Source: Acutalibacteraceae bacterium (GTDB taxonomy: Bacteria; Bacillota; Clostridia; Oscillospirales; Acutalibacteraceae). Taken from it: DNA of 62,071 nucleotides. Within the stretch, counting starts at the first letter, position 1. Every line of letters starts with the position of its first letter. The position numbers were made by a program, and so were the translations under genes. The notes beneath the pieces are model-generated. The model saw only the letters and a list, made by a program, of their open reading frames with translations, did not search any database and was not told the origin of the DNA. This document shows positions 5,378-41,099 of this stretch, piece by piece. The stretch is from the NCBI GenBank assembly GCA_045648585.1, contig JAZROI010000106.1, positions 1 through 62,071 of the forward strand, in the 5' to 3' direction.

Positions 5378-5726
5378 ATAAATGCTCAACCGCCTTTTCA
5401 AAAATATCCCTTACGTGAGAATCTGCTAAAGAATATATAACCTCTTTACCGTTTCGTTTGCATTTTACAAGATTATATTCTTTTAAAATTTTCAACTGAT
5501 GTGATACGGCAGATTTCGTCATATTTATAAGGAAAGCAATATCACAAACGCACATATTGCTTTTACTGAGTGCCCATAAAATTTGAACTCTGGTGCTGTC
5601 ACCGAACACCTTGAAAAAATCAGAAATATCAACAATAAAGCTTTTATCAGGCATATCAGGCTTTACAGTTTCAACTATTTCTTTGTGTAATACGTCACAA
5701 TCACATATATTTTCAGCTTTGCCCAT
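5364..5726 (-). CDS. ArsR/SmtB-family metal-responsive repressor
   Basis: Winged HTH (RVQILWALSKSNMCVCDIAFLINMTKSAVSHQLKILKE). ATG at 5726 is preceded by GAGGTGG. The 3' end overlaps the CDF gene start. Confidence 0.85.
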   Translation of the reverse strand: MGKAENICDCDVLHKEIVETVKPDMPDKSFIVDISDFFKVFGDSTRVQILWALSKSNMCVCDIAFLINMTKSAVSHQLKILKEYNLVKCKRNGKEVIYSLADSHVRDIFEKAVEHLYESK

Positions 5727-5757
5727 AAGCCACCTCAAAATGTTTTTTATTGATTAT

Positions 5758-5777
5758 AGTTGAACAGACGTTCAACT
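5758..5777. promoter_or_regulatory. Candidate ArsR/SmtB operator, 8-4-8 inverted repeat AGTTGAAC-AGAC-GTTCAACT
   Basis: Perfect inverted repeat about 30 nt upstream of the ArsR start. It has the TGAAC...GTTCA core typical of CzrA/SmtB-type operators. Confidence 0.55.
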
Positions 5778-5863
5778 GTCAAGAGCTTTTTTGAGCTTAT
5801 TTATAGTATTGGTAATTATTACTTTATAAATTAATAAATTATAATTTTATTCACAAATTATTA

Positions 5864-5892
5864 TTGAAATAAACAATAAATTATATTATAAT
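5864..5892 (+). promoter_or_regulatory. Sigma-A-type promoter of the large surface protein gene
   Basis: TTGAAA (5864-5869), 17-nt spacer, TATAAT (5887-5892). Confidence 0.55.
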
Positions 5893-5953
5893 CTATGATG
5901 TGTAAATTTCCGGTTAATGCATGGCATTTTCCAATAAAAATGGAGGTTTTTAA

Positions 5954-8900
5954 ATGAAATCCAAACGTGCTTCAACAAAGGCTTTATTAGCTTTTATTGT
6001 TACGTTAATTTTAGCAGTAAGCTTTTCTGTAACTGCTCTTGCCGCAGAAAGATACGAAAACTGCGGTAACAGATACGGTAGAATAATTCCTACTGATGAA
6101 AAGCTTGATGCTCAGGTTTATGATTATTATTTTAAGGGAGATAGTGCACCTATTCATTTTATGCGAATGAGCACAGGTGAGCCCGGTGCTTGTTATGCGG
6201 TAGAAATTTATGCCGACGCAGAATACACTACTCTCATAAAATATTTATCAAGAGAATATGACTCTACAGCAGGTCATTCACCTGTTGCTATTAATTTGAG
6301 CTTTGACGGCTTGAAAAGCGGTACGTATTACGGTAGGTGTTATACATACGTAACAAGGTCTGACGGAACAATATATGACCTTGATTCAATTCAGTGCTTT
6401 AACATTCATATTGACAGACTTTCCGGAAAATATGTTGTTTTGTCAGGTGCGTATAATACTGATGCCGGTATAAGTGTCAATTGGAATACTATTGCAACAG
6501 CTACTCAATATCACGTTTACAGAAAAGTAAACGGTGTGGGTGATTGGGTTTATGTTTCTAATTTAGGTGAAGGTTGTTGTAATTACGTTGATACTGATGT
6601 AGTGAACGGCAATTACTACACTTATACAGTCAGATGTAGTGACGGCGGTTATTCGAGTGGTTATGATATTAACGGTGTTACTACAGCAAGACTTTCAACA
6701 CCAAATCTTCAAGGTGTTAGAAGTGCAACGCCATCAGGCGATGTAATAATAAGTTGGGACACTGTTTACGGTGCAGACGGATACTATGTATATAGAAAAG
6801 GTGGCTCGTTGAGCAATTACGAGTGGAGGCTTATTGCAGATGTTCAGGGGGGCAACTCTAACTACTACATTGATACAACAGCAAAAAGCGTTAGCTGGAA
6901 TTATAATTACACTGTTGTTGCATATAAAGGTGCAAGTTTCAGTTCATATAACCCCGAAGGTGTAGAGTATTCTTATATGTATGCTCCCGTTGTGCACACG
7001 GCAATTAACCTTGATAACGGTGTGTATATTGAATGGGCTGACAACAATAGAAATACTAAAGCTTATAACGTTTTCAGAAAAGTAGTTGGTGGAAGCTGGG
7101 AGATGTTAGCTTCTGTTGAAGGTAAAAGCTTTATTGATACAACGTGCGTTTCCGGTGTGGATTATGCTTATACAGTCGTAGCATATTGTAACACTAACGA
7201 AAGTGCTTATGATGATAATGGTTTCGTTGTAAGATGTGTTGCTACACCACAGCTTAACGAAGTTTATTTTGATGCTTATAATAATGCCGTTGTTAGTTGG
7301 AATGCGGTGCCCGGTGCAGAAAAATATTGGGTTTACAGAAAGCTTAGTTATGAAAATGATTGGGTGTTCTATGGTGAAGCATATAACAATTTCTTCTATG
7401 ATGCTTGTGAAAAATATTCAGGAGAAACTTATACTTACACTGTAATAGCTGTAAGCGGTAATTATATCAGTAACTTTGATACGTACGGAAAGAGTGCCTG
7501 CTTTATTTCAGCACCTCAGGTTTATACAGCTAATACATACGTTTGGGATACCTCTTGTGTGCGCGTTAGCTGGGATTACGTAAACGGAGCAACCTCTTAC
7601 GATGTTTACAGAAGCGATTACGGTGTTGAGAACTGGGTTTGCATTTCTCAAGGTGTCACTGTAAACGAGTTCTATGATACTACCGCTTCAATGTATGGCG
7701 GTTACAGCTATGCAGTTGTTGCTACTAACGGTTATGCTTTAAGTAAGTTTAACGTTTCATCATTGGTTGCCTTACCTACACCTAAGCTTGAATATGCGAC
7801 GGGCGGTAGCGAAGGTGGATTTAATATAGGTTGGACAGCCGTTAACGGAGCGAATGTTTATCACATTTACAGAAAAGAAATAGACGGTAATTGGGTTGAA
7901 ATTGGAACAAGTGCAACTAATTGCTATACTGATTGGTCATGGGAAGCAGTGAATCAGTACGAAGTATATACCGTTGTAGCTGAGGCTTTCGGCTATTTAA
8001 GCGGCTATGACGCTTTAGGTATAGCAAACTTTGCTGAGGTAAGAAATCTTAACGGTGTACTCACTGAAGGCGATGCACCCTACATCAATGTTAACTGGAC
8101 ACTTGACGGATATGCACAATGGTATGAGCTTGTAAGAACTCATAATGGCGAAAGTGTTTTACTTGCGGTTTTCTCAAGTGAAAGTGGCATTACACAGTAC
8201 GTTGACACTGATATCAGCATTGGTAACGAATATACTTATTCAATAACAGCAGGCTGTGACGGTAGATTTAATAAAACGAATTCAGTTACCGTAAAATATC
8301 CTCTTCCTCCTGTTCCTGCAGTAGCTATAGGTGCAGTAAACGGATATGTATATAACGGAAAAGCTTGCGCCGATATCAGTTGGGGACTTGTTGATTACGC
8401 TGAATATTATACTGTATTCAGACGTACAGAGAATTCTGAATGGCAGGTTATAGCAACGTTATATCCTCAGGATATGGCAAACGGCCCCTTCTATACAGAT
8501 ACAACAGCTGATTTTGATGTAGTTTATTATTATACCGTAGTTGGCTACGCAAATAACAGAGAAAGCTATTACGATAATACAGGCGTACCTACTGTTATTC
8601 TTAAACCGATTGATTATCCTTACGGAATTACAGCAAGAGAGGATATAATCAATACACAAACTGTTGCAGTTATCGGTTGGGATGCAGTTTATAATGCAGA
8701 ATATTACAACATTTTCAGAAAAGATAATAACGGTGATTGGGTTTATTTAAACACTGTTGACAGTAACACACTTACTTATATTGATTACAGTATAGTTCAA
8801 GATGTTAAATACACATATACAGTTTCGGCAGGTGCTAACGGTAGAGGTGAAGCATATAATCCTTACGGTGCAACTTACCGTTGGAATATAGACGGAGCCG

Positions 8901-32765: not shown

Positions 32766-33050
32766 TTATTCTTCAGTTACCTTATCAACAGTTATGGTAA
32801 CTTCGTTATTTTCTACTATTGCAAAGCCGTCGGAAATATGGGCTGAAAAGATTTTTTCGTCATTAACGGTTACAGTTACTTCGCCTTCCGAGAGAGCAAA
32901 AACCGCTTTTGTATGACCTTTTCTTATACCGTAATAGCCTGAAAATTCACCGTTTAGCTTGTCAGCTATCGGTAAACGGATGCCGTCACATTCTATAACG
33001 GGGATTTGGCGGTCAACGGTAAAGAATTTAACAGAAAGTAAATCCTTCAT
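32766..33050 (-). CDS. atpC: F1 ATP synthase epsilon subunit, beta-sandwich domain only (about 94 aa)
   Basis: Last gene of the atp operon. MKDLLSVKFFTVDR... The length is far short of the usual ~135 aa. An alternative GTG start at 33059 overlaps the atpD stop. Confidence 0.75.
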   Translation of the reverse strand: MKDLLSVKFFTVDRQIPVIECDGIRLPIADKLNGEFSGYYGIRKGHTKAVFALSEGEVTVTVNDEKIFSAHISDGFAIVENNEVTITVDKVTEE

Positions 33051-33055
33051 ATATA

Positions 33056-34459
<1,404 letters not shown>

Positions 34460-35299
34460 TTATTCTTCCTCTTTCATTGTGTATTCGGATGAGATTTCGA
34501 TAACGTCGGCAGTAACCTGACTTTGACGTTGGTGATTGATTTGCATTTCTAACTGTGCACTGTATTCACAAGCGGTATCGTATGCACTACGCATTGTCGT
34601 AAGTGTTGCGGCCTGAGCACCTAAAGCAGTTTCAAGTATCTTTTTATAAAGAATAGAAACAAGTATTTTCTCGGCAGTACATTGAATAACGGTTTGCCTG
34701 TCGGGAACAAATAAAGGTTCTTCAACGTTTGAAATTGCCATATCATCAAAGGTGAACAGCTCTTCACAAACAGGCTTTTGCACCATCATATTCGTATATT
34801 TGGGATACACTATTTTTACTGATGATATTTCGCCGTTTTCAATAAGCTTCTTAAGCTCGTTGAACAGCTCGTATGCATCAGAATAAGAGGGTACGTCTGA
34901 AAACAAATATGATTTGGTGTAAGAAATTTTCTTGTTATCAAGATAATCCGTGCCTTTTTTACCGCAAGTAATTATCTTAGGTGCTTTCTTCTGCTGTCGA
35001 AAAAGCTTTTCAAAGAATGCGGTAAGCTCACTGTTAAAGCTTCCGCACATACCTTTATCTGACGAGAGCAAAATATATAATATCGGTGCATCGGGATTTT
35101 TTAATGAGAAAACTGAATTTATATCATTACGGAAGCTTTCGTACATACGGCGGCATTGCTCTTCATACTTTTCGCAATCGGAATAAAGAGCAGACAGCTT
35201 TGCGTATTTTACCGTAGATGCAGTTTTCATAGCTTTAGTAATCTTTTGAGTTGAAAGAATTACCTGCAGCTTCTTTTTAAGGTTCTGTATGGTAGCCAT
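34460..35299 (-). CDS. atpG: F1 ATP synthase gamma subunit
   Basis: About 279 aa. MATIQNLKKK... N-terminus and ...QITAD(V)IEI C-terminal helix. The ATG at 35299 lies 2 nt after the upstream TGA. Confidence 0.9.
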   Translation of the reverse strand: MATIQNLKKKLQVILSTQKITKAMKTASTVKYAKLSALYSDCEKYEEQCRRMYESFRNDINSVFSLKNPDAPILYILLSSDKGMCGSFNSELTAFFEKLFRQQKKAPKIITCGKKGTDYLDNKKISYTKSYLFSDVPSYSDAYELFNELKKLIENGEISSVKIVYPKYTNMMVQKPVCEELFTFDDMAISNVEEPLFVPDRQTVIQCTAEKILVSILYKKILETALGAQAATLTTMRSAYDTACEYSAQLEMQINHQRQSQVTADVIEISSEYTMKEEE

Positions 35300-35301
35300 A
35301 A

Positions 35302-37512
35302 TCAAAACCTCTCAATAAATTCATCAAGAGCGTTGTGAAGCTCTGTTTTGAGCGTATCGTCTAATTTTTTAGCGGATTTTACTGCGAGAGAAAGCTCTGC
35401 TTTCTCAGTTTCAAAGAAACGGTAAAGCTCTTTTTCAAAGCGTTCCATATCTTTTACTTCAACGTTTTTAGCATAGCCCTCGCTGACAGCGTATATCAAT
35501 ACTGTTTGCAATTCATCTGCAATAGGTGAATATCTACCTTGCTTGAGGGCTTCGGTAAGCCTTTTACCTGCCTCAAGAGTAGCTTTTGTTGCATCGTCAA
35601 TGTCTGAGCCGAATTGCATGAATTCTGCAAGCTCTCTGTATTGAGCAAGTCTTGTACGAAGGCTTGCGGAAACCTTTTTCATAACGGGACTTTGAGCCGC
35701 ACCGCCAACACGGGAAACGGAAAGACCTACGTTTATTGCAGGGCGTTGACCCTCGTTGAAAAGCTCTGCATCAAGGAAAATCTGACCGTCGGTAATAGAT
35801 ATAACGTTTGTGGGGATATATGCCGATATATCACCCGCAAGAGTTTCGATTATGGGAAGTGCGGTAATTGAGCCGCCGCCAAGCTCATCCGAAAGATGGG
35901 CCGCTCTTTCAAGAAGTCTTGAATGAAGATAGAAAATATCACCGGGGTAAGCCTCACGGCCTGAGGGACGGTGAAGCAAAAGTGAAAGCTCACGGTATGC
36001 AACGGCGTGCTTTGAAAGGTCATCGTAAACTATAAGTACGTCCTTACCCTCATACATGAAATGCTCTGCCATTGCCGCACCTGAGAATGGGGCAATATAT
36101 TGAAGAGCTGCAGAGGCTGAAGCGGGGACGGCAATAATAGTTGTATAATCCATTGCACCCTTTGCCTGAAGCTTTTCTTTAATTTCAGCAACAAGGGTTT
36201 CTTTTTGACCGATTGCAACGTAAATACAAATTGTATTTTTACCCTTTTGGTTAATAATCGTGTCAATTGCGATTGCGGTTTTACCTGTCTGTCTATCACC
36301 AATAATAAGCTCTCTTTGTCCTTTACCGATAGGTACAAGAGCGTCAATAGCCTTAATACCCGTGTGCAAGGGGGAGTTAACGGGAGCTCTGTCAAGAATT
36401 GCTGGAGCCTTGAATTCAATAGGTCTTCGTTTTTCATAGGGAAGGTAGCCCATAGCATCAATAGGTTTACCTAAAGCATCTACAACTCTGCCTAAAAGGG
36501 CATCACCAACGGGCACGGAAGCGATTCTGCCTACACGTCTTACACGGCTATAGGATTCAATGTGAGCGAATTCGCCGAAAATAACGCAACCTATACGGTT
36601 CTGCTGAATATCGAGAACCATACCTTTTTCGCCACATTCAAACTCAACAACCTCACCGTACATAATATCGGCAAGACCGTCCATCCAACAAATACCGTCG
36701 GAAACGGATATAACACGGCCTAATTGATATTTATGAATTTTAGGTCTGAATTCTTCAGCTTTTTGGGTGAATTCCTGAATAAGTAAGCTTACGGTGTCGT
36801 CGTCCATAATCGGCTCGTGGTTCATATTCTTTTCGAAGTGGTAAAGCTCTTCGCTAACAGTGCCGTCGTAAACGGTATCACCTATACGAAGCTTAAGACC
36901 ACCGATAAGAGTATTATCCTCAAGCACCCAAAGAGACGTTTTACCGCCTACGCTGTCAAGAAGCTCTGTTGTTGCTTTATCGATTTTATCAACTAATTCC
37001 TTTTCAAGAGGAAAAGCAGAGGTAATAGTAACGTAAAGCACGTCGTGATGCTTAAGGTAAGACATATCACCGTCTGTAAGACGGATATCAGCTAAAATAG
37101 CGTCAACAACCTGACTATCAAGAGCCTTGATTTCGTTTGCATACTTTTCATAAGAGAAAAGCTTGATAACGTTTTCTTTCATAACGGAGAAAAGCTCTTT
37201 TCTTGCATCCTCAATCATTTGACGGTGGATTTCGCTATATTCTCTTTCACCGAAAGCTTTTATTGAGTTTATTTTTTCTTCTACGTTTGCCTTTGCTTTT
37301 AAAACCTCTTCAGTATCAGTATCTTCAATAATTTCTTGAGATACGGGCTCAAATACGGGCATTTCTAATTTTTCAATTTCCTCAGCCTCGTCAAGAGCCT
37401 TGTTGATTTTTTTAAGGCGGTCACCGAAAATACGCTTAATTGTTTTTCGACCCGCTAAAACAATAATGGCAACAAGAATAATAAAGTTAATTATTACGTA
37501 TTGTATTTCCAT
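35302..37512 (-). CDS. atpA: Single ORF encoding a b-like TM/coiled-coil segment, the delta (OSCP) C-terminal domain and a full-length F1 alpha subunit
   Basis: 736 codons from the ATG at 37512. Residues ~1-110 are b-like (TM helix plus charged helix). Residues ~160-235 match the delta C-terminus (SAFPLEKE...LIGGLKLRIGDTVYDGTV). Residues ~239-739 are a normal alpha (Walker A GDRQTGKT). There is no stop between the parts. Confidence 0.8.
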   Translation of the reverse strand: MEIQYVIINFIILVAIIVLAGRKTIKRIFGDRLKKINKALDEAEEIEKLEMPVFEPVSQEIIEDTDTEEVLKAKANVEEKINSIKAFGEREYSEIHRQMIEDARKELFSVMKENVIKLFSYEKYANEIKALDSQVVDAILADIRLTDGDMSYLKHHDVLYVTITSAFPLEKELVDKIDKATTELLDSVGGKTSLWVLEDNTLIGGLKLRIGDTVYDGTVSEELYHFEKNMNHEPIMDDDTVSLLIQEFTQKAEEFRPKIHKYQLGRVISVSDGICWMDGLADIMYGEVVEFECGEKGMVLDIQQNRIGCVIFGEFAHIESYSRVRRVGRIASVPVGDALLGRVVDALGKPIDAMGYLPYEKRRPIEFKAPAILDRAPVNSPLHTGIKAIDALVPIGKGQRELIIGDRQTGKTAIAIDTIINQKGKNTICIYVAIGQKETLVAEIKEKLQAKGAMDYTTIIAVPASASAALQYIAPFSGAAMAEHFMYEGKDVLIVYDDLSKHAVAYRELSLLLHRPSGREAYPGDIFYLHSRLLERAAHLSDELGGGSITALPIIETLAGDISAYIPTNVISITDGQIFLDAELFNEGQRPAINVGLSVSRVGGAAQSPVMKKVSASLRTRLAQYRELAEFMQFGSDIDDATKATLEAGKRLTEALKQGRYSPIADELQTVLIYAVSEGYAKNVEVKDMERFEKELYRFFETEKAELSLAVKSAKKLDDTLKTELHNALDEFIERF

Positions 37513-37517
37513 AATTC

Positions 37518-37943
37518 TCAAATCCTATGTGAGATTATATTTTTCGCAAACAAAGCTGCCGCTGTTTCCATTTTAGGAGCAACGGAGTCAACGATTTTAT
37601 CGTGTTCATCTTTAATGCCTTCTCTGTATTTTTGTACGTCGTCAAGGCATTGTCTTTGCGCGGCTTCAATTTCTTTTTTGCCCTGAAGCTGTATTTGTTC
37701 AAGCTTCTGCTTTGATTGTTTTCTTTTTTTCTCTTCAAATAAAACTCTTTCTTTTTCAATCTGAGCCTCATTTTCGAGAATTAACTTTTCAATAGTTGCT
37801 TTTTTCTCTTTAGCAGCCTCTGTTTTTTCGCGGCGGCTATCCATTATTTTTAAAATGGGAGTAAAAAGTAAATTTTTAAGTATTACGGTCAAAAGCAAAA
37901 AGCAAATTACAGTCCAGACCATTATTGATGGTTGAATATTCAT
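37518..37943 (-). CDS. atpF: Fo ATP synthase b subunit
   Basis: 141 aa with an N-terminal TM helix followed by a long charged helix. Confidence 0.85.
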   Translation of the reverse strand: MNIQPSIMVWTVICFLLLTVILKNLLFTPILKIMDSRREKTEAAKEKKATIEKLILENEAQIEKERVLFEEKKRKQSKQKLEQIQLQGKKEIEAAQRQCLDDVQKYREGIKDEHDKIVDSVAPKMETAAALFAKNIISHRI

Positions 37944-38012: not shown

Positions 38013-38243
38013 TCAGATTTTTGATATAAGCATAAATGCGATAAGAAGTCCGTAAATTGTAAGAGCTTCCATAAGAGCAAGAGCAATGATAAGAGTTGAA
38101 CGGATATCCTTTGCGGCATCGGGCTGACGGGCAATGCTTTCCATTGCTGCCTTTGCTGTTATACCCTGACCGATTGAAGGACCAAGTGTACTGATTGCGA
38201 TTGCGATTGCTGCTGCGATTGCGATAATTGCTGAGTTTGTCAT
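38013..38243 (-). CDS. atpE: Fo ATP synthase c subunit
   Basis: 76-aa helical hairpin with an RQPD loop and an ion-binding Glu in [11 protein letters not shown]. Confidence 0.95.
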
Positions 38244-38269: not shown

Positions 38270-38938
38270 TTATTCTGTAACCTCGTCAAGATAAATTGAA
38301 ACGAGCATTGTAAATACCATTGCCTGTAAAGCACAAAATAGTAAAGAGAGCACCATCATTACTACGGGTGCACCGATAGGGAAAATGTGATACAGCTCTT
38401 CCGTAACCATTTCCTCACCGAAAATGTTACCGTAAAGCCTAAGTGCCAAAGAGGCAGGTTTTATTATTTCATCAAGTAAAAGAAGCGGTAGCATAAAAAA
38501 CATCGGTGAAACGAAATGCTTGAAATAGTGCTTCGCATTGTGTCGTATACCTGAAATCTGTAAAAACAGGAAGGTAACAATACCTAATGCCGCCGTAACG
38601 GAAAGAGAGGCAGTAGGTGCTTTTACGTAGTCGGTAAGACCTACACCGGGTATCATACCCGAATAGTTTGAAAAGATAATGAAAATAAAAAGAGATGCAA
38701 GGAAGGTAAAATATTTTCTTGATTTCTTTTTGCCGAGAATGTCAGCGAAGAAGTTGTCAAGATATTCTACACCGGTTTCAATAACGTTTTGAAGCTTTCC
38801 CGGTCTTTCCTTAAGGCTCTTTTTGACTATAAGCGACAGCAACGTGATAAAGAGAAGCATTATCCACATCGTAATAACCTCGCCCGTTACGTCAAGTATG
38901 CCGAAAAGCTCGATAATAACCTCTGATTTTTCACCCAT
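38270..38938 (-). CDS. atpB: Fo ATP synthase a subunit
   Basis: About 222 aa, polytopic. Conserved LALRLYGNIFGEE motif. The ATG at 38938 lies 9 nt after AAGGAGG. Confidence 0.9.
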   Translation of the reverse strand: MGEKSEVIIELFGILDVTGEVITMWIMLLFITLLSLIVKKSLKERPGKLQNVIETGVEYLDNFFADILGKKKSRKYFTFLASLFIFIIFSNYSGMIPGVGLTDYVKAPTASLSVTAALGIVTFLFLQISGIRHNAKHYFKHFVSPMFFMLPLLLLDEIIKPASLALRLYGNIFGEEMVTEELYHIFPIGAPVVMMVLSLLFCALQAMVFTMLVSIYLDEVTE

Positions 38939-39260
38939 CGGCTTCACCCTCCTTTTCTTCTTTTTTAGTATCGGCAGTTTTATTAAAGCTTAAAAGCTTT
39001 TTTGTAAAATAAACCATAGGTATCGTCATACCTAAAACTGCACCGACAAGTAAGTACATTACGTTTGCAATTTCAGTTTTTGTTCCGATAAAATAAACTA
39101 AAACAAGGAAAAGAACTTGTAAAACCTGCCGTGCCATAGTTGTAAAAAGAAATTTGTCAGGCGTTTTTATAAGCACTTTCTTTGAAAAAGTGTAGTTTAT
39201 GAAAGCTACTAAAAAACCGGCAATTGCCGCAACGATAGCGCCAATAATATCCGGGTTCAT
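38931..39260 (-). CDS. atpI: AtpI/AtpZ-like small membrane protein
   Basis: 109 aa with 3-4 TM segments. First gene of the atp operon. Confidence 0.6.
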   Translation of the reverse strand: MNPDIIGAIVAAIAGFLVAFINYTFSKKVLIKTPDKFLFTTMARQVLQVLFLVLVYFIGTKTEIANVMYLLVGAVLGMTIPMVYFTKKLLSFNKTADTKKEEKEGEADG

Positions 39261-39507: not shown

Positions 39508-39660
39508 ATGGAACACATTAAAACAATTGAAACACGTAATTTGTGTGAAAGTGCAAAAAACGGTGGTTGTGGCGAGTGCCAGACATCTTGTCAGTCAGCT
39601 TGCAAAACAAGCTGCGGTATCGCAAACCAGGAATGTGAAAACGTTAAAGAAAGCAAGTAA
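39508..39660 (+). CDS. scfA: SCIFF-family Cys-rich RiPP precursor peptide (50 aa), not present in the ORF track
   Basis: GGGAGG RBS (39494-39499) lies 8 nt before the ATG. Translation is MEHIKTIETRNLCESAKNGGCGECQTSCQSACKTSCGIANQECENVKESK. The core GGCGECQTSCQSACKTSC is the hallmark of the 'six cysteines in forty-five residues' family. Confidence 0.9.
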   Translation: MEHIKTIETRNLCESAKNGGCGECQTSCQSACKTSCGIANQECENVKESK

Positions 39661-39676
39661 TTTTACATGCCGAAAT

Positions 39677-39700
39677 GCCGCCGGAACGGGCGGCTTTTTT
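39677..39700 (+). terminator. Intercistronic hairpin plus T6 (partial terminator/attenuator) between precursor and maturase
   Basis: GCCGCC-GGAACG-GGCGGC followed by TTTTTT, immediately upstream of the maturase RBS GAAGGAG. Confidence 0.7.
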
Positions 39701-39719
39701 CGTGAAGGAGATATATTAT

Positions 39720-41099
39720 ATGATTCATCAGTACAAGCAAGGTGGCTACAATATCGTGCTTGACGTTTGCTCAGGTGCCGTTCACGTTGTGGATGAGGTA
39801 GCTTACGATATTATTGCTATGTTTGAGGATAAAGAAAAGGATGAAATATTAAGTGTTTTATCCGAGAAATATAACGACCGTGACGATATCACCGATAACG
39901 ATATTGAAGAGTGTTATTCTCAGGTGCAGGGCTTAAAGGATTCAGGGAAGCTTTTTGCTCCCGATACTTTTGAGTCTATGGCAGGTACACTTAAGCAGAA
40001 AACTGCAGGTGTAGTAAAGGCTTTGTGCTTACACGTTGCTCATACTTGTAACCTTAACTGTGCTTATTGCTTTGCAAGTCAGGGAAAATATAACGGTGAA
40101 AGAGACGTAATGAGTCTTGAGGTCGGTAAACGTGCTCTTGATTTCCTCGTTGAAAATTCAGGTAGCCGTCATAATCTCGAGGTTGACTTTTTCGGCGGAG
40201 AGCCTCTTATGAATTTTGACGTGGTTAAAGAACTTGTAGCGTATGCAAGAAGCATAGAAAAAGAGCATAATAAAAACTTCCGTTTCACGCTTACGACTAA
40301 CGGCGTGCTTGTTGACGACGATGTTATTGATTTTGCTAATAAAGAGTGTAGCAACGTTGTTCTCAGCCTTGACGGACGAAAAGAAATTCACGACCGCTAC
40401 CGTGTTGACTATGCGGGTAACGGCAGCTGGGAAAAAATCGTTCCTAAATTCCAGAAATTTGTTGAAGCAAGAAATGGTAAAAATTATTATATGCGAGGCA
40501 CCTTTACCCACGCAAACCCTGATTTCCTTAAAGATATTCAGCAAATGCTCGATTTAGGCTTTAGTGAGTTAAGTATGGAGCCTGTTGTTTGTGCACCGGG
40601 TGACCCCTCTGAGCTTACCGAAGAGGATTTAGCAATCGTAATGAAGCAATATGAGGATTTAGCCGATTTAATGCTTAAAAGAGATAAAGAGGGCAAACCC
40701 TTTACCTTCTATCACTATATGATTGACCTTACAGGCGGTCCTTGTATCTACAAACGAATTTCAGGCTGCGGTAGCGGTACTGAATATATGGCGGTTACAC
40801 CTTGGGGCGATTTATATCCTTGTCATCAGTTCGTAGGCGATGAAAAATTCAAATTAGGTAACGTTTGGGATGGTGTTACAAACCACGAAATTCAAAGTGA
40901 GTTTGCCGCTTGTAACGTTTATGCTCATCCCGAATGTAAAGATTGTTGGGCAAGACTTTATTGCTCAGGCGGTTGTGCGGCTAACGCTTACCACGCAACA
41001 GGCTCTGTTACGGGCGTTTATGAAAGCGGTTGCCGTCTTTTCCGTAAGCGTATGGAGTGTGCGATTATGGTTGCAATCGCAAGAGCACTCGGAGAATAA
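39720..41099 (+). CDS. scfB: SCIFF radical SAM/SPASM maturase
   Basis: MIHQYKQGGYNIVLD... Contains a CNLNCAYC (CxxxCxxC) cluster and a C-terminal SPASM Cys pattern (CGSG...C..C.ARLYCSGGC). The ATG at 39720 follows GAAGGAG. Confidence 0.9.
   Translation: MIHQYKQGGYNIVLDVCSGAVHVVDEVAYDIIAMFEDKEKDEILSVLSEKYNDRDDITDNDIEECYSQVQGLKDSGKLFAPDTFESMAGTLKQKTAGVVKALCLHVAHTCNLNCAYCFASQGKYNGERDVMSLEVGKRALDFLVENSGSRHNLEVDFFGGEPLMNFDVVKELVAYARSIEKEHNKNFRFTLTTNGVLVDDDVIDFANKECSNVVLSLDGRKEIHDRYRVDYAGNGSWEKIVPKFQKFVEARNGKNYYMRGTFTHANPDFLKDIQQMLDLGFSELSMEPVVCAPGDPSELTEEDLAIVMKQYEDLADLMLKRDKEGKPFTFYHYMIDLTGGPCIYKRISGCGSGTEYMAVTPWGDLYPCHQFVGDEKFKLGNVWDGVTNHEIQSEFAACNVYAHPECKDCWARLYCSGGCAANAYHATGSVTGVYESGCRLFRKRMECAIMVAIARALGE

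Follow-up and report, generated by a model that had tools for sequence, protein, structure and literature searches.

The window analysed here is positions 1 to 62,071 of contig JAZROI010000106.1 of an Acutalibacteraceae bacterium (NCBI GenBank assembly GCA_045648585.1), and the subject of this report is a long open reading frame (ORF) in its atp operon, which encodes an F-type ATP synthase. This ORF encodes a true triple fusion of ancient origin, maintained by selection, in which a membrane-anchored b-type stalk arm (b'), the C-terminal domain (CTD) of the delta/OSCP subunit and a complete F1 alpha subunit follow one another in a single frame (b'-deltaCTD-alpha). The product is probably a component of an F-ATP synthase that is obligately multi-stalk, with each alpha covalently tied to a b chain of its own.

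A sequence-only reading of the window had proposed a 736-codon ORF composed of a b-like transmembrane and charged helix, a delta C-terminal domain and a complete alpha, and Pfam matches, alignments to PDB chains and an AlphaFold2 model all bear this out. The internal ATG at 36807, the NHEPI linker and the 501-residue alpha that it described are likewise present in the sequence. The range that it gave, 35302-37943, covers the fusion, but also takes in the separate b gene at 37518-37943. The absence of the delta N-terminal domain went unremarked there, as did the natural delta-alpha fusions already pointed out in 2025. The features of the fusion are listed below; residue numbers follow the 736-codon numbering unless the 739-codon numbering is stated.

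35302-37521, minus strand: long fusion ORF, 739 codons from a TTG or 736 codons from the ATG at 37512
37063-37512, minus strand: b' module, residues 1-150, with a transmembrane helix at about residues 4-22, a variable acidic tether (49-67), a long helix (68-118) and then short helices
36817-37059, minus strand: delta/OSCP C-terminal domain, residues ~152-232, matching the C-terminal half of Pfam OSCP
36793-36816, minus strand: junction linker EPIMDDDT, residues 233-240 (8 residues), which holds the former alpha start codon (ATG, 36805-36807)
35302-36807, minus strand: complete F1 alpha, residues 236-736, with the stop codon; atpA equivalog match

Domain architecture of the fusion protein

In Pfam searches of the window protein (739-codon numbering), ATP-synt_B matched residues 7-52, OSCP residues 155-233 and three alpha domains residues 268-735. 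The match of the b' part was confined to the first ~50 residues and scored 24.8 bits, under the 28-bit cut-off, whereas two distant fused homologs, P0214 and P0155, matched positions 2-126 of the 132 of the same profile at 35.8 and 41.0 bits, above the cut-off. The N-terminus of the fusion has the make-up of a b or b' subunit, namely a single N-terminal transmembrane helix followed by a long amphipathic helix. Compared pairwise, the free b subunit of the operon and residues 1-150 of the fusion are 23% identical (E-value 5e-4), and on sequence grounds the fused b' arm and the free b subunit are paralogues.

The OSCP match, at 47.9 bits against a cut-off of 22.3, covered only profile positions 96-172 of 172, which correspond to the C-terminal domain, and in four distant fused homologs OSCP likewise matched only from profile position ~95. 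The domain aligns to residues 117-173 of the Bacillus PS3 delta (6n2y_I), to 108-169 of 9o19_W and to 8j0s_d, and by this match it would be the part of delta that binds the C-termini of b. The N-terminal helical bundle of delta, of about 100 residues, which in ordinary enzymes caps alpha3beta3 on its three-fold axis and binds the N-termini of alpha, is absent, profile positions 1-95 being unmatched in the window protein and in the four distant homologs. The possibility that it is hidden in residues 53-151 was rejected, as this region is b-type up to about residue 125 and is modelled as long single helices. Given the near-full b match in P0214 and P0155 together with an OSCP match that begins only at ~95, the domain formula is a complete b/b', then the delta C-terminal domain, then alpha.

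The alpha part, of 501 residues, is recognised by the atpA equivalog TIGR00962 at 726.9 bits (cut-off 484.45), whereas the model of the alternate or N-ATPase alpha gave 602 bits, under its cut-off of 750.5. PF02874, PF00006 and PF00306 of Pfam all match, and alpha chains of the PDB align with E-values of ~1e-177 to 1e-185. A free-standing alpha of ~500 residues with its own start codon is not what is encoded, the ORF being 736 residues long and the former start codon variable. By calculation the full-length product weighs 82.2 kDa, the part from M236 onwards 55.3 kDa and residues 1-235 26.9 kDa, and the calculated tryptic peptide across the junction is NMNHEPIMDDDTVSLLIQEFTQK (residues 229-251).

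AlphaFold2, run for the monomer on a 25-sequence alignment, gave a model with a mean pLDDT (predicted local distance difference test) of 69.8. Its N-terminal part consists of a helix at 2-48 (the transmembrane helix and an extension), disorder at 49-67, a 51-residue helix at 68-118 and short helices up to residue 156. The alpha/beta fold of the delta C-terminal domain follows at residues 158-232 with pLDDT of 84-92, and then a coil (233-240), the alpha N-terminal helix (241-253) and the rest of alpha. No six-helix bundle of the delta N-terminal kind is seen in the model. The b' arm is modelled with about 130 residues outside the membrane ahead of the delta C-terminal domain, a length resembling that of E. 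coli b. The segment predicted to be disordered, MPVFEPVSQEIIEDTDTEE (residues 49-67; ~37312-37368, minus strand), is acidic, contains proline, follows the membrane-proximal helix of b' and differs among orthologs; it may be a flexible tether equivalent to the 'tether domain' of b.

Conservation and reality of the fusion

A full-length protein search of ENA, NCBI, JGI and Logan assemblies, clustered at 90% identity, returned more than 120 separate clusters, all of 736-737 residues, with 98-100% query coverage and 79-99% identity. In a scan of one genome per GTDB species there were 213 confirmed matches, and 80 loci were kept for analysis; these are metagenome-assembled genomes (MAGs) labelled Acutalibacteraceae, Candidatus Fimenecus, Oscillospiraceae or Clostridia, mostly from the guts of ruminants or other animals. 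A single one-frame tblastn alignment reaches residue 736 in 79 of the 80 loci at 73-98% identity, its start being residue 1 for 78 loci and residue 13 for L079, while in the eightieth, L011, the contig end cuts the fusion at residue 652. One locus, L054 (JAZOAX010000210.1), carries a single in-frame stop at codon 284, in the beta-barrel region of alpha; its 284-residue product also occurs as P0279, and the stop is either a sequencing error or a recent pseudogene.

More distant homologs were collected by an exhaustive profile-free search with residues 1-241. Fused proteins were found with N-terminal parts of 39% identity (P0126, 745 residues), 31% (P0155, 751 residues) and 26% (P0214, 753 residues), and many distant fragments truncated by contig ends also pass from the delta domain directly into alpha. 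P0214 is 47% identical overall to the window protein and represents a second deep subfamily; all 120 best matches of a search with it are fused and 743-756 residues long, with names that include 'Firmicutes bacterium CAG:555' and 'Oscillospiraceae bacterium'.

Among the apparent unfused relatives that were checked, no convincing evolutionary intermediate was found. P0128 is a contig-end fragment, and the short matches of the homologue search with the N-terminal part only are fragments on contigs of 1-5 kb. P0196 in L085 (JGI Ga0530621_1948, 5472-8242) appears as a 260-residue b'-delta and a 478-residue alpha, likely by a 1-nt frameshift; the missing N-terminal helix of alpha is readable in the adjoining frame, and this contig has a split b gene as well. 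Judging by these sequences, the splits of L085 are probably indel errors and not a sign of a true unfused relative.

All segments of the fusion are under purifying selection. The pairwise ratios of nonsynonymous to synonymous substitution (dN/dS) were 0.10-0.24 for the b' module, 0.05-0.17 for the delta C-terminal domain, 0.015-0.25 for the linker with the alpha N-terminal helix and 0.04-0.09 for the remaining alpha, values to be read with dS largely saturated (all above 0.8, mostly above 1).

The sequence-only reading had cautioned that a 1-nt assembly or sequencing error, deleting the stop codon of delta, could have created the fusion. The TGA in the +1 frame on which it based this, 14 nt upstream of the internal ATG and within AATATGAAC, is indeed present in the window, and occasional error-bearing contigs such as L085 and L054 do exist. 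However, the same in-frame fusion recurs, at identities as low as 47%, in assemblies made independently, which number in the hundreds and come from four data sources, and all retrieved orthologs keep it unless a contig end cuts them. Moreover, the TGA is found only where the codons read AAT ATG AAC and is gone with CTT, CTC, CTG, TTG or TTT, and the linker itself is under purifying selection. The probability of an artefact is thus negligible and the caution is refuted. Nor is there, in the orthologs, a stop or frameshift parting a b/delta protein from alpha, since all 79 uncut loci align in one frame, the stop of L054 standing at codon 284.

In public annotation the protein is named 'F0F1 ATP synthase subunit alpha', and its fragments 'subunit delta, partial' or 'membrane subunit b/b''. 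Such names render the triple fusion invisible in functional annotation.

The junction and internal initiation

Counted from GDTVYD, which is the final delta strand, to SDGIC, within the barrel of alpha, 99 of the 102 unique junctions from both subfamilies are exactly 65 residues long, and despite this fixed length the sequence of the linker has diverged between the subfamilies. A fixed length with a free sequence indicates a geometric constraint on an intact covalent connection, as a cleavage site should conserve sequence. Proteolysis of the linker at N(H/R)EPI(M/L) would release b'-deltaCTD and alpha from each other and, with the surplus stalk modules degraded, would give a single-stalk enzyme without the delta N-terminal domain. 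The motif is well conserved inside the 736-residue subfamily and AlphaFold2 predicts a non-helical linker, both of which would suit such cleavage. Nevertheless we consider it very unlikely: in addition to the divergence of the linker between subfamilies, none of the genes associated with the operon encodes a protease, the delta C-terminal domain, once cut loose and lacking the N-terminal domain, would be poorly held on F1 (the stated reason for fusing the two in an engineered construct described below), and to produce three stalk modules and discard two would be wasteful.

The sequence-only reading had offered two mechanisms, internal initiation at M239 (739-codon numbering) or a remodelled complex. 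In the first, dual translation from the internal ATG at 36807 would yield a free 55-kDa alpha, and one fused and two free alphas would share a single anchored stalk, which would remove the 3:1 stoichiometry problem without a new architecture. A GAG lies 6 nt upstream of this ATG, and of the 80 subfamily sequences (the window and 79 loci) 65, the window's among them, keep the ATG. The other 15 sequences, however, carry CTG (10), CTC (2), TTG (1), TTA (1) or TTT (1) at the old alpha start. The second subfamily has Ser or other residues there and no Met, Met is likewise wanting in the distant homologs, and of the 242 full-length fused proteins 82 lack a Met throughout the junction zone.

The signals around the codon tell against dual translation as well. 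In a dozen species GAA takes the place of the upstream GAG codon, and in three species GCA does so. The duplex between Shine-Dalgarno (SD) sequence and anti-SD at the internal ATG has an energy of -2.2 kcal/mol, in agreement with the earlier remark that no strong SD is present, and is the weakest among the ATG starts of the operon, those of I, c, b, the fusion, gamma and beta being at -4.0 to -7.7 kcal/mol. The synonymous-site entropy in 9-codon windows over the junction is 0.77-0.86 of expectation (gene-wide mean 0.74, standard deviation 0.09), and this lack of a dip implies that no overlapping nucleotide signal is conserved. No hidden internal ribosome-binding site was found at the junction, where the sliding-window synonymous entropy has no dip and the SD pairing is weak. 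A programmed frameshift to the +1-frame TGA followed by re-initiation was also considered; it was rejected as the TGA accompanies only AAT ATG AAC and the synonymous sites of the junction are unconstrained.

Because the start codon is variable or absent, the SD weak and the synonymous sites unconstrained, internal initiation is disfavoured as a general mechanism; dual translation is in our view unlikely, and a minor route of this kind is possible in the window's own organism. Of the two mechanisms, the remodelled complex is favoured, by analogy with the engineered enzyme of PDB entry 9JC1, which is colinear with the fusion protein and forms a multi-stalk FoF1.

The engineered analogue

When the whole protein is compared with PDB sequences, chain I of 9JC1 ('ATP synthase delta subunit, ATP synthase subunit alpha', 580 residues) ranks second, and no other match reaches beyond alpha on the upstream side; query residues 173-732 align to its residues 14-572 with an E-value of 7.8e-184. 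Chains I, J and K of the same entry are the top three Foldseek matches of the AlphaFold2 model. At the junction the natural sequence '...YHFEKNM--NHEPIMDDDTVSLLIQ' aligns with the engineered '...ERIRRQLIGGSGGSIRAEEISALIK' residue for residue except at 2 positions, the engineered 'GGSGG' linker sitting at the place of the natural linker with a 2-residue difference in length.

The source of 9JC1 is 'Engineering of ATP synthase for enhancement of proton-to-ATP ratio' (Nat Commun 2025; PMC12229609). The argument there was that FoF1 is kept to one stalk by the delta N-terminal domain, which lies on the pseudo-threefold axis; residues 2-104 of the PS3 delta were deleted and residues 105-178 fused to the N-terminus of alpha (PMC12229609). 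The construct, expressed in E. coli DK8, carries up to three b2 stalks with an a-subunit on each, on average 2.2 times the a-subunit and 1.8 times the b-subunit content, and its H+/ATP ratio was 5.8 against 3.0, with the equilibrium proton-motive force (pmf) halved (PMC12229609). The number of protons per turn was proposed to equal N(c) x N(a) (PMC12229609). The stalks dissociated during preparation, and a stably bound version is needed according to the authors (PMC12229609).

The atp operon of the window

The fusion ORF is flanked by the remaining atp genes, as follows.

38931-39260, minus strand: atpI-like small membrane protein, the first gene of the operon; ORF with weak Pfam matches
38270-38947, minus strand: Fo subunit a; ORF whose likely start is the ATG at codon 4, 9 nt past AAGGAGG
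38013-38243, minus strand: Fo subunit c, 76 residues; NCBIfam TIGR01260 (ATP_synt_c), 56.8 bits against a cut-off of 43.95
37518-37943, minus strand: free b-type stalk subunit, 141 residues; Pfam ATP-synt_B at 24.4 bits, under the 28-bit cut-off
34460-35305, minus strand: F1 gamma, placed at 34460-35299 within this ORF; Pfam ATP-synt, E-value 2e-53
33056-34456, minus strand: F1 beta; ORF, the sole other alpha/beta-like gene in the window
32766-33059, minus strand: F1 epsilon, 94-97 residues, N-terminal domain only; NCBIfam epsilon models at profile positions ~27-86, under their cut-offs

No separate delta gene was found in the atp operon of the window. This claim of the sequence-only reading, together with its operon order of I-a-c-b-fusion-gamma-beta-epsilon, agrees with the ORFs and with the 69 of 79 loci in which the order was recovered, the others being cut by a contig end or having one gene unmatched. 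The same arrangement surrounds P0214 and P0155 of the distant homologs, and the order is likewise kept in L081-L083. In all 79 loci the free b gene lies directly upstream of the fusion, and the 7-11 nt (in most cases 8 or 10) from its end to the start of the fusion could not accommodate a delta gene. Within the 62-kb window no second alpha was found either, beta alone matching. The best NCBIfam match of the free b subunit is 'subunit B'', also under the cut-off of that model, and the 141-residue protein is the presumed partner of the fused b' arm.

Subunit a is well conserved, with a mean identity of 90% across the 76 orthologs found, and its equivalents in L081-L085 match Pfam ATP-synt_A. A strong AAGGAGG Shine-Dalgarno sequence stands before it, in the region 38938-38960 (minus strand). 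Subunit a of E. coli is poorly translated. Strong translation of the gene would suit a demand for more than one a-subunit per complex, and we take the AAGGAGG only as a hint in this direction. The equivalent of the atpI-like gene in L085 gave a weak ATP-synt_I match, and the SD of gamma, GAGAGG, lies within the end of the fusion ORF.

In the ion-binding region of subunit c (38013-38243, minus strand) Ala and Leu follow the carboxylate, where Na+-binding c-subunits have Ser or Thr. This motif presumably points to H+ coupling. Only the N-terminal beta-sandwich part of epsilon (32766-33059) was matched, without the C-terminal inhibitory helices; among the relatives epsilon is short in L082 (81 residues) and of full length, 138 residues, in L081.

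Diverging from the operon is an ordinary Clostridia gene pair, the precursor of the SCIFF six-cysteine ranthipeptide (39508-39660, plus strand; TIGR03973, 80.5 bits) and the adjoining radical-SAM thioether maturase (39675-41099, plus strand; TIGR03974, 765.5 bits).

Peripheral stalks and a-subunits of the predicted enzyme

The stoichiometry issue raised by the sequence-only reading is the real point of interest of this operon. In the mechanism that we propose, every alpha would be made with its own membrane-anchored b' helix and a delta C-terminal domain, the part that would clamp the tops of the b helices, connected by a short linker of fixed length. Since the delta N-terminal domain that limits the enzyme to one stalk is absent and there is no free delta gene, each alpha should nucleate a stalk, and each of the three would do so as a b/b' heterodimer with the free 141-residue b. 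The predicted enzyme would thus have three covalently tethered stalks, and its single c-ring would probably be served by more than one proton-conducting a-subunit, three at most. Additional a-subunits would multiply the H+/ATP ratio, up to threefold, with one proton passing per c-subunit per a-subunit, so that ATP could be made at a very low pmf or, in reverse, more protons pumped per ATP hydrolysed. We infer stalk number, a-subunit number and physiology by analogy with the engineered enzyme. The fullest form of the reading, with three tethered b/b' stalks and three a-subunits on one c-ring and an H+/ATP ratio of about three times the canonical one throughout a large clade of gut and rumen Clostridia, is put forward tentatively, as a plausible outcome that falls somewhat short of being probable.

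Several points weigh against this reading. The intact 82-kDa polypeptide and the counts of stalks and a-subunits are here predictions from genes, and the search for a second atpA or atpH covered the 62-kb window and ~6 kb of flank per locus. The ATG at the old alpha start is retained in 65 of 80 sequences of the window's own subfamily, the window included, and to judge from this some internal initiation is possible. The AlphaFold2 model is monomeric and of moderate quality, and the pairing of b with b' is a presumed one. Both b chains of the engineered enzyme are free, and three extra membrane-anchored arms might behave differently. Finally, three a-subunits require a c-ring of sufficient circumference.

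The three b/b' stalks might also be accompanied by one a-subunit only, with two of the stalks serving as passive braces that raise the stability of the enzyme while H+/ATP remains normal. V- and A-type ATPases provide a precedent, having 2-3 peripheral stalks with one a-subunit, and the sequence does not fix the copy number of a. We regard this arrangement as quite unlikely, however, since the b-type transmembrane helices of the window are ordinary anchors of the a-binding type and the AAGGAGG of subunit a is a weak hint of high expression, and since in the engineered enzyme every observed stalk was bound to an a-subunit and the stoichiometry of a rose with the number of stalks (PMC12229609).

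The number of stalks and of a-subunits in F-type enzymes has been treated as invariant at one, with the size of the c-ring regarded as the sole source of variation in the H+/ATP ratio. If the threefold reading is true, the enzyme would have the highest coupling ratio known and would synthesise ATP at a pmf far under that needed by textbook enzymes; a raised ratio would suit fermentative anaerobes living at low pmf. If the enzyme is multi-stalk, estimates of the energetic limits of fermentative gut anaerobes would change, and a natural and stable template for high-ratio ATP synthases would be available to bioengineering. The b' arm would then be a natural solution to the stalk dissociation that limits the engineered version.

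Comparison with known systems

The rule of one stalk was broken in 2025 by engineering, through deletion of the delta N-terminal domain and fusion to alpha, and its authors guessed at a parallel in Acidaminococcus (PMC12229609). In the operon of Acidaminococcus fermentans, delta is naturally fused to alpha and has no N-terminal domain (D2RLW6), and G4Q3K6 and A0A1I2C5T3 were listed as further cases (Discussion and Suppl. Fig. 9 of PMC12229609); natural multi-stalk enzymes working at low pmf were predicted, 'which awaits further experimental verification' (PMC12229609). With these three proteins of Negativicutes in print, a natural fusion of delta, lacking its N-terminal domain, to alpha is not categorically new (PMC12229609). 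In a 2017 survey of fusions in atp operons, the b-delta fusion of actinobacteria is the sole entry (PMC5709465). A triple fusion that includes b', the fact that it is fixed in two deep subfamilies among hundreds of species of Clostridia, and the evidence against internal initiation appear to be undescribed, as far as a limited literature search goes, and a prior description is possible. The solution extended by b' is a fixed trait of the second deep subfamily and of at least 213 genomes, at the level of species, from Acutalibacteraceae and other bacteria resembling Oscillospiraceae, and such a covalent b' arm is part neither of the engineered enzyme nor of what was published on Acidaminococcus.

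The likeness to 9JC1 is the closest. The delta N-terminal domain is lost at nearly the same point, residue 105 of the PS3 delta corresponding to about residues 155-160 of the window protein; a short linker, GGSGG there and NHEPI here, joins the C-terminus of delta in frame to the N-terminus of alpha; and the operon has no free delta gene. Epsilon of the window is without its C-terminal domain, and the PS3 construct was likewise made on an epsilon-deltaC background. Unlike 9JC1, the window protein is natural and not designed, and it has an extra b' membrane arm of ~150 residues, such that one chain of each stalk is covalent whereas both b chains of 9JC1 are free. The stalk of the window enzyme would accordingly be a b/b' heterodimer and not b2.

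The Acidaminococcus fusions, compared here by their published description only, share with the window a natural atp operon in which delta is fused to alpha and the delta N-terminal domain is missing. They come from Negativicutes and are described as delta-alpha proteins only; the window family has the b' arm and belongs to Clostridia (Acutalibacteraceae and other Oscillospiraceae-like MAGs). No Negativicutes were found among the named members of the matched clusters, whose names are those of Oscillospiraceae or Firmicutes only.

The atpFH product of mycobacteria and other actinobacteria (7JG5 chain d, 8J0S chain d) resembles the fusion in that a b transmembrane helix and stalk helix stand N-terminal to delta and a second, free b-type partner (b') is present; in the delta C-terminal domain, query residues 172-226 align to 385-440 of 8j0s_d. 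The mycobacterial b-delta protein, of 445-446 residues, nevertheless retains a full delta including the N-terminal domain and is separate from alpha, and its enzyme has one stalk. The window protein is not of this type, as the delta N-terminal domain is absent and alpha is fused. V/A-type ATPases, with two or three EG peripheral stalks and a single a-subunit, are similar to the predicted window enzyme in having several peripheral stalks per rotary enzyme. Their EG stalk proteins are, however, unrelated, soluble and not membrane-anchored, with no homology to the module described here.

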